IMG/VR virus record: IMGVR_UViG_3300030059_001555
Span: 1-62,966 of that record
Origin: a virus
Taxonomy: Duplodnaviria > Caudoviricetes
Direction: 5' to 3' (one strand)
DNA: 62,966 nt
The position numbers and the translations under genes are program-made. Positions 2-3,950 of this stretch are shown in pieces; position 1 is the first letter of the stretch; each line of letters begins with the position of its first letter. A model generated the notes under the pieces. That model worked only from the letters and a program-made list of their open reading frames with translations, made no database searches and was not told where the DNA came from.

Positions 2-1450
2 CTCTGAGTTTATCCTTAAGTTATTTGTGTACCCACCAGAATTATCTGCTAGTTGTATAAAGGCTCTTCTAGTACCACTCTGAGTGAAGGTAAGTAGAGG
101 GTTTCCTGTAGACGTGGAAGCGTTTACGGTTAAGTTACCTGTAATAATTTGATTTCCAGTTGCTAACGCTGTAGCTGTATCTGCATTACCTGTAATATCT
201 CCTGTAACGGATGCGTTAAGAGTGTTGAGTATTGTTGTATTACCACTAGAGTCAAACGTTATACATTGTACATGATCGTCATCTTCGATTATATTTCCAG
301 TAACTGTTAACTTCCCATCTATCTGTAGGTTACCTACATTATCTAACTCTGCAATCACAGCACTAGATCTAAGAGTGGTAGCACTTCCTCCTGCTGCAGA
401 AGAGTAGAACTGTATTAACCCTCCTGTTGCAGAACCAGTACCTCTACCTGCTTCTAAAAGCAAATTACCACCTGCTTTATTTGTACCTGTAGCATTTCCA
501 GCTGATACAGATAGAACACCTCCTGCATCGTCACTATGGGTTTTTCTAGTTATAAAAGCCTTACCGTTATCATCGTCACCTACAGTTAGAATTTCAGAGG
601 CATATGTTATACCTGTTGGGAATGAAACCTTGGCAGTGTTAGCATCTATTTCAGCTAACAAAGTATCAGCTAGCTTATCCTCTGTAACTTGGTCATCACC
701 TATGTAAGCAGTCTTTATGGTGGTACCCTGCCAAGTACCAGAACTTATTGTACCAACCCCAGTTATATTTGATTGATTAGCTACAGACAATAACCCAGCG
801 CTAGTCATAGCAGCTGTCGAACCCATAGTAAGTGCACCAGCCACTTTTAAATCATTAATTGTACTCACAGTGGAGGCACCAAAATGTAACTCACCAGTCT
901 CACCACCGTCTGAGGCATCACCAATTTTAGCTTGTATATTAGCGAATGTAATTACTTCATCAGCGTCGTTTAGAGCTTTAAAATAAACCTGACCAATTAA
1001 ATCACCATCTGCCCCTGTCCTACCAGCTTTGTTATATATTAATGTTGGACCACCAGCAGCCCCAGCAAGGGTTTGCTGAAGAGTTAGTATGGGTTTAAAA
1101 GATCCAGTTGATGCAAACAACGCATCGTTACCGTCATAAGTGAAGTTAGCTTCAGCGTTCATAGCGTCTGTACCTGTAGCAGTTACAATTCTATTATCCA
1201 CGCCGTTGGTCATAAAGTCAGACACGTCCACGTTTAGAGTGGGTATCGGACCTGTTAGGCTAGTACCACTCAACCCAGTACCTGCTACGATAGACGTTAG
1301 GTCACCAGCCACTGAAGTGCTCTTACTCACCTTACCAGCGGAATCAACTACTAAGACATTAGTCTCTGTGGTTGTAGCTAAGCTTTCTAAATAAACGTCA
1401 GATCTAAACCTAGATATAAAACTCCATATATGTTGCCCTATCCACTTCAC
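2..1450 (-). CDS. tail fibre-like protein, partial (runs off window start)
   Basis: My translation from GTG at 1450 (MKWIGQHIWSFISRFRSDVYLE...) stays open to the window edge. G/T/S/A-rich with fibre-like repeats (TGDITGNADTATAL). Missing from the ORF track because it has no stop. Confidence 0.7.
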   Translation of the reverse strand, partial: MKWIGQHIWSFISRFRSDVYLESLATTTETNVLVVDSAGKVSKSTSVAGDLTSIVAGTGLSGTSLTGPIPTLNVDVSDFMTNGVDNRIVTATGTDAMNAEANFTYDGNDALFASTGSFKPILTLQQTLAGAAGGPTLIYNKAGRTGADGDLIGQVYFKALNDADEVITFANIQAKIGDASDGGETGELHFGASTVSTINDLKVAGALTMGSTAAMTSAGLLSVANQSNITGVGTISSGTWQGTTIKTAYIGDDQVTEDKLADTLLAEIDANTAKVSFPTGITYASEILTVGDDDNGKAFITRKTHSDDAGGVLSVSAGNATGTNKAGGNLLLEAGRGTGSATGGLIQFYSSAAGGSATTLRSSAVIAELDNVGNLQIDGKLTVTGNIIEDDDHVQCITFDSSGNTTILNTLNASVTGDITGNADTATALATGNQIITGNLTVNASTSTGNPLLTFTQSGTRRAFIQLADNSGGYTNNLRINSE

Positions 1451-1989
1451 TATCTATGTATGTATATCTTTCTAGTTAATGTGCCATCACTTACTATGTA
1501 AAATCCATTAGTAGGTTCTACCTCTCTACCTAAAATATCAAAGTAATATATTGGTTTGAAAGTGTTGATATTCAACTCTTCTAACCCTATAGTTAAACAT
1601 CCTATGTCTATTATTGTATCTTTAAAATCTTGAGGCCAAGTACCAATAGAATCTATCCAATCTACGTCAGATAAAAACCCGTACTCTGTTTCGTCTATAT
1701 AGAGATAAGCTCCATTCCAACCATCACCATAAGAATCTTGCATAGCTATCTGGTAATACTCAGGTAATACCACCGCACCTAAATAAGGTGCTATACCTTC
1801 TAATAGTATACCACCATTGCAGGTTAGTATCTGCCAAGTGACCTCGTCAGGGTATTCTCCTGTTGTACATTCTACAAATACTGTTTGCTGTTGAGCATTA
1901 GCTGCTTTAGATATTCCTATTAATATAAAAACAGATACAGCTATAGTTAATACTAGATATGCTACGTACTCTAATTTACCTTTATTCAT
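1450..1989 (-). CDS. secreted protein with DSYGDGWNG motif and T9SS-like C-terminal sorting domain
   Basis: Hydrophobic N-terminus with ANA/QQ cleavage site; QDSYGDGWNGA motif typical of Bacteroidota surface proteins; C-terminus YFDILGREV...YIV...RKIYI. Confidence 0.6.
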   Translation of the reverse strand: MNKGKLEYVAYLVLTIAVSVFILIGISKAANAQQQTVFVECTTGEYPDEVTWQILTCNGGILLEGIAPYLGAVVLPEYYQIAMQDSYGDGWNGAYLYIDETEYGFLSDVDWIDSIGTWPQDFKDTIIDIGCLTIGLEELNINTFKPIYYFDILGREVEPTNGFYIVSDGTLTRKIYIHR

Positions 1990-2357
1990 TATTGGAATTT
2001 GTTAAATGTTATTTCGTCTATTACTGATTGTACTTCTTTTTTTGTGGCTGATAATTGCATCATTATATTAGGGTCAAACCTTTTTTGTTCTAATCCGTTA
2101 TCAAATATTATAACAGTAGGAACTGAGGTTACTTTATATTCCGATTGCAGGTCAGAGCTTTTAACTATACAAACTCTGTACACATTACAATCTTTTAATG
2201 AGGGTAGAAACGCTACTTTATTACCGTCGTTCCATTCTACATAGAACTCTATTACCACTGTTCCTTTAGCTGTCTTAGATTCAAACGAACTAGATGTTAC
2301 GAACTCTTGAGCTACTACATTAGTTGTTAGTAATAGTAGTAATAATAAATATTTCAT
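1989..2357 (-). CDS. exported thioredoxin-fold protein lacking CxxC
   Basis: Signal peptide; VVIEFYVEWN (W-N-D-G-N in place of WCGPC); SVPT cis-Pro motif; IIFDNG. Confidence 0.7.
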   Translation of the reverse strand: MKYLLLLLLLTTNVVAQEFVTSSSFESKTAKGTVVIEFYVEWNDGNKVAFLPSLKDCNVYRVCIVKSSDLQSEYKVTSVPTVIIFDNGLEQKRFDPNIMMQLSATKKEVQSVIDEITFNKFQ

Positions 2358-2656
2358 ATTGCTATTCTTATTGTGATAACACCTAACGTAGCTCCAGCAA
2401 CATCAGCTGCAAGGTCACTCCACTCAGGTTGCCCATTTTTTATATCATAAATCTCTTTGATTCCTCCGGCTATAATAGAAGCACATAGACCGTATATAAT
2501 TGCCTGCTTCTTGTTCTTTGTTTTATTATAAACTACAGCACTAACAGCGGAACTAATAACGTAACTACCACCTAAATGAAGTAGCTTGTCCTGTTTTATA
2601 TACTGAGCGTATATAGGACTGTATATTAAAAACGCAATTAGAAGTAGTTTACTCAT
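2354..2656 (-). CDS. YfiM/VanZ-like (DUF2279-like) membrane protein
   Basis: Signal peptide, DKLLH, KEIYD and DLAADVAG motifs, hydrophobic helices. Confidence 0.6.
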   Translation of the reverse strand: MSKLLLIAFLIYSPIYAQYIKQDKLLHLGGSYVISSAVSAVVYNKTKNKKQAIIYGLCASIIAGGIKEIYDIKNGQPEWSDLAADVAGATLGVITIRIAI

Positions 2657-2927
2657 ACAACTTTTCTTTAATCATTTTAATATCGTCTTTTATCTCAGTC
2701 ACATCTTCTTGTGTTGACATAATAGTTTGACGGATAAGTTTATCTTTCATATCAAACTCCATTCGAGTGATCTCAGGATCGACTGGTAGAGGTAGTTCTC
2801 TAGCTTCTGATATATCAGCTTGTAATGTAAACCACATACCTACTAATGTTACTATACCAAATCCTATACCTGCCAATGTTTTAACACTAACTTTAAAAGT
2901 TGTATCTTCGTTTAACTCTTTAGCCAT
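2649..2927 (-). CDS. single-pass membrane protein with C-terminal coiled coil
   Basis: TM segment LAGIGFGIVTLVGMWF followed by heptad-like tail. Confidence 0.6.
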   Translation of the reverse strand: MAKELNEDTTFKVSVKTLAGIGFGIVTLVGMWFTLQADISEARELPLPVDPEITRMEFDMKDKLIRQTIMSTQEDVTEIKDDIKMIKEKLYE

Positions 2928-2930
2928 TCC

Positions 2931-3950
2931 TTAAAATATTAAATAATTTATTCCTGCTTTACACTCGTAAGACTTTATGTCCCAATACTTTAAATGTCTA
3001 CCTTCAATGTACAGACCAAGGTGTTTATTTATCTTAGCACCTAATACAGCTCCAACATCCCATTCGAACTTACCCTCTGGGTAATTATAAGAGTAATCAC
3101 TTAACCCTTTATGTATAGGGTAAGCTGAACCCCATGAATGGAACCAAGCTTTATCTGTGTAGTAATAATAATCAGCACCGATAACTCCTGATATTTCTTG
3201 TTGAAGTCCCATTGATCTCAACTCTTGTTTATTATACTCATTAACGGCTTCACCAAAATGGTAATTATAAAACTCAGGGTCTGACTGTGCTATAACTTCT
3301 CCATCATGAGACCATACGTGATCCTCTGTATCGGAGTAACCAAACTCATAAGCTAACTGCCACCAGTGTTTGTTCTCAGGTATAGCAAACCAAGCTTCCA
3401 CTGGAGTGTAACCATACACAGGGTGCGATCGATGTGCCACACCAATTGTTAAATCTAAGTTACCTATATTCTTACGTAACCTAATTTCACCTTGTGTATA
3501 CTTCAGGTCTATTAAACCATCGTTTACATATGCAGCTTTAGTAGTAAAGTGATTTGAGATATAACGAACTTTATATTCGTGTTGTTGAAACCTCATCCCT
3601 CTATTTCTAATAGAAGAATACTCTAATAGGTATTCTAAACCTGGTGCATTAGATACAGTAGCATAATCGCTAACCTCGTTCTCTGCTCCAGTATAAAACC
3701 TACCTCTCTTTACTTGGTAGTCAAACCTTGCTATCTTTCTTAACCCTACACTTAGATTGTAATTCGGTTCGCTTATCTGTGTTATCTCCACTAGTTGGCC
3801 TGAACCAGCAACACCGTTCACCAAGAATTGTTGGTTCTCTGTAAACGGAGCACCAGTTGATAGACTTGCGTAGAAAGTTGCGAATCTTAGAATCTGTGCA
3901 TTGGCAATCGTTGAGCATAATAGTAATGTATATAAGAATATTCTTTTCAT
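2931..3950 (-). CDS. outer-membrane beta-barrel protein
   Basis: Sec signal (ANA/Q), alternating aromatic/hydrophobic strands, C-terminal beta-signal AGINYLIF ending in Phe. Confidence 0.65.
   Translation of the reverse strand: MKRIFLYTLLLCSTIANAQILRFATFYASLSTGAPFTENQQFLVNGVAGSGQLVEITQISEPNYNLSVGLRKIARFDYQVKRGRFYTGAENEVSDYATVSNAPGLEYLLEYSSIRNRGMRFQQHEYKVRYISNHFTTKAAYVNDGLIDLKYTQGEIRLRKNIGNLDLTIGVAHRSHPVYGYTPVEAWFAIPENKHWWQLAYEFGYSDTEDHVWSHDGEVIAQSDPEFYNYHFGEAVNEYNKQELRSMGLQQEISGVIGADYYYYTDKAWFHSWGSAYPIHKGLSDYSYNYPEGKFEWDVGAVLGAKINKHLGLYIEGRHLKYWDIKSYECKAGINYLIF

Follow-up and report, generated by a model that had tools for sequence, protein, structure and literature searches.

A conserved block of exported envelope proteins in marine Flavobacteriia phages, and its possible spanin-like role in lysis

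How phages that lack a recognisable spanin open the outer membrane of their hosts is a question that bears on a block of five genes in the IMG/VR virus record IMGVR_UViG_3300030059_001555. The whole record, a linear stretch of 62,966 bp that is 97% complete according to CheckV, was analysed here and is called the window. It is a podophage genome, kin to Flavobacterium and Cellulophaga phages within a marine Flavobacteriia phage lineage, and phages of marine Flavobacteriia matter for carbon turnover after algal blooms. The block is a widespread and genetically testable candidate for outer-membrane opening, with at least 549 IMG/VR stretches (of 598 matched) encoding a relative of its first protein. 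We propose that it acts as a late envelope-spanning lysis accessory in place of the missing lipoprotein-type spanin, a reading that we regard as possible rather than probable. The proposal starts from what can be observed of the block, namely its gene set, its export signals, its folds, its co-conservation and its position beside lysis genes.

The initial annotation had reported five tightly coupled genes, and all five are present on the minus strand. They encode A (2931-3950), a predicted outer-membrane beta-barrel of 339 amino acids (aa); B (2649-2927), 92 aa with one N-terminal transmembrane (TM) segment; C (2354-2656), a small, hydrophobic, DUF2279/YfiM-like protein of 100 aa that forms an accessory insert between B and D; D (1989-2357), 122 aa with a signal peptide and a thioredoxin fold; and E (1450-1989), a secreted beta-sandwich protein of 179 aa. 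In the window a gap of 3 nucleotides (nt) separates A from B, and the remaining junctions are overlaps of 8 nt (B-C), 4 nt (C-D) and 1 nt (D-E). Median gaps in relatives are 3 nt for A-B (59 loci), -8 nt for B-D (76) and -1 nt for D-E (38), and B lies immediately upstream of D in every one of the 76 pairs, with gaps of at most 10 nt. At the other end of the block the start of a tail-fibre-like gene (2-1450, minus strand, cut by the record end) overlaps the stop of E by 1 nt. Since the block is tightly packed with this structural gene, it is most likely transcribed late. No terminator-like sites were found in window positions 1-7200 (mean of shuffled sequences 2.8), and promoter-like sites occurred at chance level (28 against 24.6 expected) in a scan that does not model Bacteroidota promoters. 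No RNA library was listed among the data sets that carry the sequence. Three short metatranscriptome contigs do match the window exactly: one of 152 nt lies in E, one of 154 nt in the fibre gene and one of 153 nt at 4332-4480. They come from two libraries of the same sample as the DNA, so that carry-over of DNA is possible, and they are not counted as evidence of expression.

Which of the five genes belong together was judged from their neighbourhoods, where they co-occur in many uncultured phage contigs, as a gene-neighbourhood check proposed at the outset was meant to establish. We examined 90 distinct loci, from which 13 duplicates (the same contigs with other flanks) had been removed beforehand; loci are cited below by their numbers. 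Tallies refer to the 73 loci with more than 2.5 kb downstream of A, the 17 of 90 with 2.5 kb or less being left out, and they draw on the best 80 of at least 549 matches per scan, which biases them to closer relatives. Open reading frames (ORFs) in the loci were called simply, from the first ATG, GTG or TTG and on the plus strand of each locus only. D was found near A in 70/73 loci and B in 67/73, the latter an undercount, as the choice of ORF dropped B in four loci where tblastn found it. E, or a variant called E2, was near A in 53/73 loci. C was near A in 5/73, a count taken from the locus gene lists; labels from the C hidden Markov model (HMM) were not used because they matched almost every locus, probably on hydrophobic leaders. 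Anchoring on D instead, A and B were present in 56/56 loci with at least 3.5 kb upstream, largely the same contigs as in the A-anchored set. The order A-B-D is kept even in contigs of metagenome-assembled genomes (MAGs) where A is only 28-31% identical, and 20 of the 73 loci (e.g., L054-L069) keep A-B-D without E or E2. Given the frequency of D and B and the order kept at such low identity of A, the conserved unit is A+B+D, with E/E2 and C as accessories. The five-gene unit first described does not hold as such: C is a rare insert, and E is absent or replaced in subclades.

The block also proved to be phage-specific. In a collection of 5.8 billion proteins, 161 relatives of A at E ≤ 1e-3 were found among 2,011 word-sharing candidates, none of them with a Pfam domain and all unnamed or 'hypothetical', and a search of 1.84 billion 50% representatives with the A profile yielded only 323 matches (E ≤ 1e-3), most of them to fragments. 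Neighbours of A in the ESM Atlas are 100% viral. Searches of 50,697 deposited phage records returned no match for A, B, C or E, and for D weak generic thioredoxin matches only. A scan of one genome for each of 185,579 species in GTDB, made with two peptide patterns and liable to miss distant bacterial relatives, found 4 loci, all on phage-like MAG contigs, in which A-B-D stands beside a giant virion protein. A recent syntenic copy of a host operon, which had been raised with the first description, is rejected on these few and wholly phage-like loci from the two-pattern scan together with the all-viral Atlas neighbours. Loci L024 and L027 come from a GTDB MAG labelled Candidatus Woesearchaeota and hold a giant phage protein and A, with B and D too in L024; they are most likely mis-binned phage contigs.

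The second observation on which the proposal is built is the company that the block keeps. In most relatives the gene after E (or D) encodes a 151-aa Peptidase_M15_3 protein (5.5e-16) that also matches the endolysin family phrog_894 (2e-36), and the M15 gene is followed by a 128-aa homologue of a holin of the window. This holin, a 3-TM protein of GTA-holin type encoded at 39240-39632 (minus strand), matches phrog_3427 (2.7e-30) and PF11351 (1.5e-4, just below cut-off); many relatives have its homologue immediately downstream of the block. Closer to the block lies h77 (4625-4858, minus strand), with two hydrophobic segments and no PHROG or Pfam family, which is holin-like by topology only; its relatives start at an internal MEIFKD... 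and are about 70 aa long. M15 or the 3-TM holin is found within -4/+7 kb of A in 51/73 loci, h77 in 27/73 (in several between A and B-D), and at least one of M15, the holin, h77 and cc74, which is a holin-like protein of 74 aa, in 56/73. Counted by gene number instead of distance, M15 is present in 37 and the holin in 34 of the 73. In some clades holin-type genes are even interleaved with the block, in the orders H3-A-B-D-E, A-E2-h77-B-D-H3 and A-h77-cc74-B-D-E-M15-H3.

No M15 endolysin was detected in the window itself by the M15 HMM, by tblastn or by a six-frame search with PF08291 (0 matches). A Pfam scan of 52 further window ORFs matched 10 families with no peptidoglycan hydrolase among them, and two giant window proteins gave crAss_MUZ_C only, again no peptidoglycan hydrolase. 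The related record that contains L019 shares the window's order A-B-C-D-E-fibre; there the fibre gene encodes 1109 aa, and after it come a second fibre-like gene and Peptidase_M15_3. The window record breaks off within its first fibre gene, after 483 codons, and its endolysin is therefore probably encoded in the missing 3% of the genome. The initial annotation had recognised neither endolysin nor spanin in the window; neither was found here either, but a holin is present, and the argument that it built on the missing endolysin fails, since relatives have M15 after E or after fibre genes and the record ends inside a fibre gene.

For the spanin the searches were of a different kind. When ORFs from every start codon of the window, in all six frames, were scanned for a lipobox, a single one turned up, which is 30 aa long, lies in the early region and is not credible. 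The related loci showed only four unlabelled lipobox-like ORFs close to the block, one of them plausible (L027, 147 aa), and no conserved small lipoprotein was found there. Judged by these scans, the window appears to have no canonical lipoprotein-type spanin. In this it would not be alone: some 13-15% of phages of Gram-negative hosts are reported to be without a recognisable spanin, Bacteroides and Croceibacter phages included (PMC6139136; 10.1101/515445), and the 91 such phages given by Kongari et al. 2018 (PMC6139136) include Bacteroides B124-14 and Croceibacter P2559S/Y. The same authors raise the idea that 'an OMP could act as an o-spanin', where OMP stands for outer-membrane protein. In the text of Bartlau et al. 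2021 (PMC8776804) unimolecular spanins are annotated in two Cellulophaga phage groups only, and the related podophage Gundel is given a peptidase-type lysin. Small membrane factors have been described as extra lysis components, for example Lcc6 of the Shewanella phage LambdaSo (10.1101/2024.01.23.576932). We found no outer-membrane-barrel spanin and no A-B-D module described in the literature searched, in which supplementary tables may contain relevant gene-level annotations.

What kind of proteins, then, are A, B and D? A had been described as an outer-membrane beta-barrel ending in Phe, and the predictions agree with this: A has a signal peptide, ends in ...NYLIF in the window, and its model finds its best structural matches among outer-membrane barrels. 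Of 34 aligned homologues, which are 45-88% identical and share 52 invariant columns, at least 90% end in Phe. A barrel fold, for which a structure prediction had been suggested as a check, is predicted from the AlphaFold2 model (pLDDT 77.5, pTM 0.66), a sheet of about 14 long strands with a 73-residue helical insertion at 177-249 and a low-confidence stretch at 76-99. The 4 matches that Foldseek found in the PDB at E ≤ 1e-3 are to NanC (two of them), a chitoporin and F. johnsoniae BamA, and the remainder of its list consists of membrane barrels too, at low TM-scores of 0.2-0.35. VIA-align, which is independent of Foldseek, placed the TamA barrel first (Z 11.8, root-mean-square deviation 4.1 Å, 179 residues aligned); CdiB, BamA, autotransporter barrels, LpxR, KdgM, Tsx and NanC came next, and 24 chains reached Z ≥ 8. 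The TpsB transporters among the structural matches are CdiB (Z 11.2) and FhaC (Z 9.9). Only the barrel part of TamA, CdiB and BamA aligns, as the mature part of A, about 320 residues long, has no N-terminal domain, and neither a POTRA domain nor an Omp85/TpsB Pfam match was found. By sequence A matched no family in Pfam (E ≤ 1), PHROG, NCBIfam or PADLOC, and its family profile had 0 matches in the PDB at E ≤ 10. A is therefore best described as having a predicted outer-membrane barrel fold of no particular known family. Identification of A as DUF6850, an autotransporter or OMP_b-brl was rejected, these being only the 'nearest named' Atlas clusters (0.93-0.94) with low feature counts.

Within A, conservation is highest at residues 73-103, where 9 of 31 residues are invariant and the mean top-residue frequency is 0.82. 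If strands are counted back from the periplasmic C-terminus, their parity puts these residues on the periplasmic side. Being highly conserved yet the least confidently modelled, the segment is a likely candidate for binding a partner. The long extracellular insertion at 177-249 has 8 invariant residues. As a side observation, the leader of A reads ...LLISCATPKKCCAQ in one subclade (L076-L078, L083, L087, L103 and L104), where a lipobox-like Cys is followed by a second cleavage-like site before Gln, and the barrels of this subclade might be lipidated or doubly processed.

B had been called a TM/coiled-coil protein, and hydropathy gives it one hydrophobic segment at residues 13-36, followed by a Pro-rich linker and a charged periplasmic segment. 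The periplasmic part comprises 57 residues, 24 of them charged, and its segment looks helical from the sequence. An alignment of 28 homologues has 10 invariant columns and a conserved core, TRMEFDMKDxLIRQTI; it contains no conserved Cys, and B of the window has no Cys at all. No family match better than E 0.03 was obtained for B in Pfam, PHROG or NCBIfam. A paralogue of B, 108 aa long, has the same TM segment and flanks with a different periplasmic part, matches phrog_20984 (3.4e-12), and adjoins endolysin or holin genes in several loci (L070:10288-10614, L057, L063, L068, L072-L075).

In D the thioredoxin fold behind a signal peptide, without a CxxC motif, was recognised correctly from the start. 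D matches Thioredoxin PF00085 above cut-off (8.8e-6, 26.1 bits against 23.5), and its family profile finds 208 thioredoxin-type sequences in the PDB (best 7.9e-15), with WN..N of the query aligned over WCGHC. The usual WCxxC is replaced by W42-N43-x-x-N46; N43, N46 and P80 are invariant in 31 sequences, the cis-Pro is kept, and Gln17 is at least 90% conserved. Since invariant Asn replaces both active-site Cys, D cannot be an oxidoreductase and is read as a redox-dead thioredoxin fold. The accessory C is YfiM-like as reported, with a match to DUF2279 above the Pfam cut-off (PF10043, 1.4e-6, 29.4 bits against 28.6), and it matches phrog_26616 'lipoprotein' (2.2e-12). Its match to the YfiM model NCBIfam NF008028 (1.8e-10) reaches 41 bits against a cut-off of 117, and C is not an equivalog of that family. 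The N-terminus of C, MSKLLLIAFLIYSPIYAQ, has no Cys and was not picked up by the lipobox scans.

Export of these proteins is indicated by their leaders. A signal-peptide-like N-terminus followed by small-x-small-Gln is present in 81 of 82 distinct A homologues, in 36/37 E and in 22/22 E2, against 12/591 background ORFs; under the strict small-x-small-Gln pattern D scores 33/73. The exported proteins of the block appear to follow the Q-rule of Bacteroidetes, by which Gln stands after the signal peptidase I cut (PMC5837995, PMC10653852), and this agrees with a Bacteroidota host and with real export. Phages of P. gingivalis are reported to encode Q-rule proteins too, of unknown function (PMC10367356). 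The view that the block encodes exported or membrane proteins of three envelope compartments is supported, as is its standing as an undescribed system: no family or defence model of Pfam, PHROG, NCBIfam or PADLOC is matched by A, B or E, and the PADLOC defence and exclusion models gave 0 families for A-E and h77 at E ≤ 0.1.

Put together, the parts suggest how the block might contribute to lysis. Sec would export the four secreted proteins, cleavage by signal peptidase I would give each an N-terminal Gln, and BAM would insert A into the outer membrane. The periplasmic segment of B would dock on residues 73-103 of A, either alone or via D, and the resulting B-(D)-A contact would link the inner to the outer membrane, a link that intact peptidoglycan would restrain. 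Holin and M15 endolysin would act first, and the link would then destabilise the outer membrane. The topology fits such a link, with an N-terminal TM and a charged periplasmic segment in B and a periplasmic-side segment in A. In its specific form, in which A, B and D constitute a new spanin-equivalent with an outer-membrane barrel tethered via a redox-dead thioredoxin adaptor to an inner-membrane helix protein, we consider the proposal doubtful. Among the functions suggested at first (superinfection exclusion, receptor masking, import and non-canonical lysis) the gene context favours lysis.

There is a good deal to set against the proposed lytic role, and it is the reason for our caution. Intermolecular disulfides are reported to be near-universal in two-component spanins (PMC6139136), and B is free of Cys, unlike these disulfide-linked proteins. 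The 57-residue periplasmic part of B is short for spanning the periplasm unless D and the A segment add to it, and a beta-barrel could not join in membrane fusion in the way proposed for a lipoprotein o-spanin, so that the mechanism would differ. Seventeen of the 73 loci have none of the four modelled lysis-type families within -4/+7 kb; in the clade with the order A-E2-B-D the block adjoins small basic proteins, and no lysis gene was recognised there. In the window 35 kb lie between the holin and the block, the record lacks the endolysin, and the bias of the neighbourhood counts to closer relatives counts here too. Late expression, every physical contact and the lytic role are what we infer. 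Finally, a place beside lysis or tail genes is typical of exclusion genes too, lambda bor and lom among them.

This last point leads to superinfection exclusion or receptor masking, which we think unlikely. Here A, helped by B and D, would block or alter the phage's own receptor in the outer membrane, and would thereby stop secondary infection and the trapping of progeny on debris, for which lambda Lom, acting on LamB, and T5 Llp, acting on FhuA, are the models. The block of the window lies among tail-fibre-type genes, with a Laminin_G_3 protein encoded upstream and the fibre gene overlapping the stop of E, and lambda lom is placed similarly. Many phages encode outer-membrane barrels, and the favoured explanation for these is receptor interference; a preprint counts 1,603 OMPs in 1,303 huge phages and cites the binding of Lom to LamB (10.64898/2026.10.24.761521). 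However, masking needs no strict co-conservation with an inner-membrane and a periplasmic protein, and A is conserved over deep divergence, the insertion at 177-249 included, whereas receptor-facing surfaces usually vary with host range. Late expression, as suggested by the packing with a structural gene, would be ill-suited to exclusion, although it would suit protection from debris. Moreover, no PADLOC model was matched, and the Pfam families that A does not match at E ≤ 1 include those of Lom/Ail type.

A further alternative turns on E and E2. E has a strongly hydrophobic N-terminus, a signal or anchor helix, and its family alignment contains an invariant DSYGDGWNG motif and three invariant Cys. 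AlphaFold2 models it as a beta-sandwich (pLDDT 79.6). In the PDB neither a search by fold (E ≤ 1e-3) nor one by sequence (E ≤ 5) returned a match. The 34 nt that code for the DSYGDGWNG motif (window 1711-1744) are matched by several unrelated contigs with different flanks from a marine metagenome and its metatranscriptome, so that the motif is common to other genes of that marine community. In a sister clade E is replaced by E2, a secreted protein of 230 aa with an LDL-receptor-like DGWxDCxDxSDE motif and an acidic repeat region, which the E HMM also matches. Small basic proteins of the 'MAFKMKGF...' kind are numerous around the block in a sister clade. The bodies of E and E2 differ, but the two have a common C-terminal tail of about 35 residues, with the beta-strand motif YYdilGreV ... 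GiYiv ... KiYi.

The initial annotation had seen in this tail a likeness to the sorting signal of the type IX secretion system (T9SS), and for this we find weak support. None of 28 E-family members matches the type A C-terminal domain (CTD) model Por_Secre_tail (PF18962 / TIGR04183) at E ≤ 5, and NCBIfam gave no match at E ≤ 1. When 53 E/E2 tails were compared with 22 CTDs by hhalign, 19 columns were aligned at P 4.8e-4, a weak match with a probability of 32%; in 20 column shuffles P fell no lower than 0.029, and reversal gave 0.37. The CTDs came from 25 translations from two Flavobacteriaceae MAGs, of which three with fewer than 50 residues were dropped; the two MAGs hold related contigs and have 13 and 12 CTD matches. 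The tail of E aligns with the 'iYnilGq.V' strand of real T9SS CTDs, and the end motif of E/E2 resembles the last CTD strands. The likely hosts of block-bearing phages do have T9SS cargo, but the tail is about half the length of a CTD, for which the model has 75 positions. The nearest named Atlas clusters of E were all Por_Secre_tail, at a language-model score of 0.81 that is below trust level and serves as a lead only.

Secretion or display, with A as an outer-membrane translocon or anchor for E/E2 via their common tail, much as in two-partner secretion or in the handling of T9SS cargo by PorV or PorP/SprF-type barrels, is in our view improbable. It draws on E2 being encoded directly after A in the sister clade, on a tail shared by E and E2 despite their different bodies, on a tail profile that does better against CTDs than its shuffles and reversal, on the Atlas lead and on the resemblance of A to CdiB and FhaC. 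However, the 20 loci that keep A-B-D without E or E2 imply that cargo cannot be the core function, A lacks the POTRA domain and the Omp85/TpsB match, and the tail is short and fails the Por_Secre_tail model. Least probable of all is control of lysis timing, with B as a one-TM holin or antiholin, D as a periplasmic regulator and A as an outer-membrane sensor, like T/RI of T4: the build of B (an N-terminal TM and a periplasmic domain of about 55 residues) resembles small holins and antiholins, the 74-aa TM-plus-helix protein beside B in L029/L030 weakly matches holin phrog_1296 (2.8e-4) and the 108-aa paralogue of B adjoins endolysin or holin genes, but B has no family link to a known holin or antiholin in Pfam or PHROG, the phages already carry the phrog_3427 holin and often h77, and lysis-timing systems are not known to include an outer-membrane barrel.

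If the block does serve as a spanin-like lysis accessory, its nearest counterparts would be the two-component spanins such as lambda Rz/Rz1. Both pair a lysis-linked inner-membrane protein, with a TM and a charged periplasmic domain, with an outer-membrane protein, both are encoded by tightly packed adjacent genes, and the block-bearing phages show no other spanin candidate. The differences are considerable: A is a 320-residue beta-barrel whereas the o-spanin is a small lipobox lipoprotein, a third, periplasmic protein of thioredoxin fold (D) is always present in the block, B lacks Cys and has a short periplasmic domain, and the block has no sequence relation to spanin families. A precedent for another outer-membrane-disrupting protein in a spanin-less phage is the disruptin gp28 of phiKT (10.1101/515445), which is a single small cationic peptide, whereas the block has at least three exported proteins, one of them a barrel. 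With lambda Lom and other phage outer-membrane barrels A shares Sec export and a position near tail or lysis genes. Lom, however, is an 8-strand barrel of the Ail/Lom family that acts alone, whereas A has about 14 strands and belongs to no described family; in contrast to the barrels of huge phages, A occurs in podophages of roughly 60 kb and always with B and D. D resembles the thioredoxin family in its fold, as judged by profile, and in its cis-Pro loop, and it differs in its invariant W-N-x-x-N and its export to the periplasm.

Phage-encoded OMPs as a class and spanin-free disruption of the outer membrane are already known. What is new, whatever the function, is a family of outer-membrane barrels confined to phages, a periplasmic thioredoxin that is both conserved and redox-dead (WNxxN), and phage proteins that follow the Q-rule. 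Were the spanin-like role true, the block would be a case of the 'OMP as o-spanin' raised by Kongari et al. 2018 and would explain lysis by many spanin-less marine flavophages. Were the lytic role wrong, the module would still be an unusually deeply conserved set of exported phage proteins acting on the host envelope.

The remainder of the genome accords with its placement among flavophages. The nearest relative of the large terminase is that of an uncultured Caudoviricetes record (63.6% identity), and the list of 87 records continues with phages of Flavobacterium (68), Cellulophaga (15), Tenacibaculum (2) and Maribacter (1). Recognisable genes include those for portal, capsid-type proteins, GroEL/GroES-like proteins, primase-helicase, ligase and ribonucleotide reductase. 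The minus strand carries the packaging and structural genes, between about 44 kb and position 1, and the plus strand beyond 44 kb the replication genes.

Several other genes of the window deserve mention. An 84-aa DUF6321 protein is encoded at 4083-4337 (minus strand; PF19846, 1.4e-11), and about 190 nt of its gene have 71-75% DNA identity to genes of Pelagibacter, Methylophilales and Synechococcus phages, a nucleotide-level sharing that is unusually wide for unrelated marine phages. Of the two giant proteins, that of 2656 aa (7055-15025) matched no Pfam family, and that of 2144 aa (19536-25970, minus strand) has a crAss_MUZ_C domain at its C-terminus (PF25729, 2.4e-7, 31.5 bits against 27), which suggests a crAss-like tail muzzle in the flavophage lineage. 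A phage GroEL is encoded at 40316-41881 (minus strand; phrog_5725, 3.7e-134). A Pfam Cpn10 match (3.6e-12) among the 52 scanned ORFs belongs most likely to the 85-aa gene at 40072-40329 (minus strand), and a 195-aa protein (38148-38735, minus strand) matches a 'co-chaperonin GroES' PHROG. For the plus-strand region 43.9-60.2 kb the same scan, in which individual ORFs are not resolved, gave Sigma70 region 2 and region 4, ERF recombinase, thymidylate synthase, DUF3799 (PDDEXK-like), DUF1064, DUF7326 and a pyrimidine-dimer DNA glycosylase.

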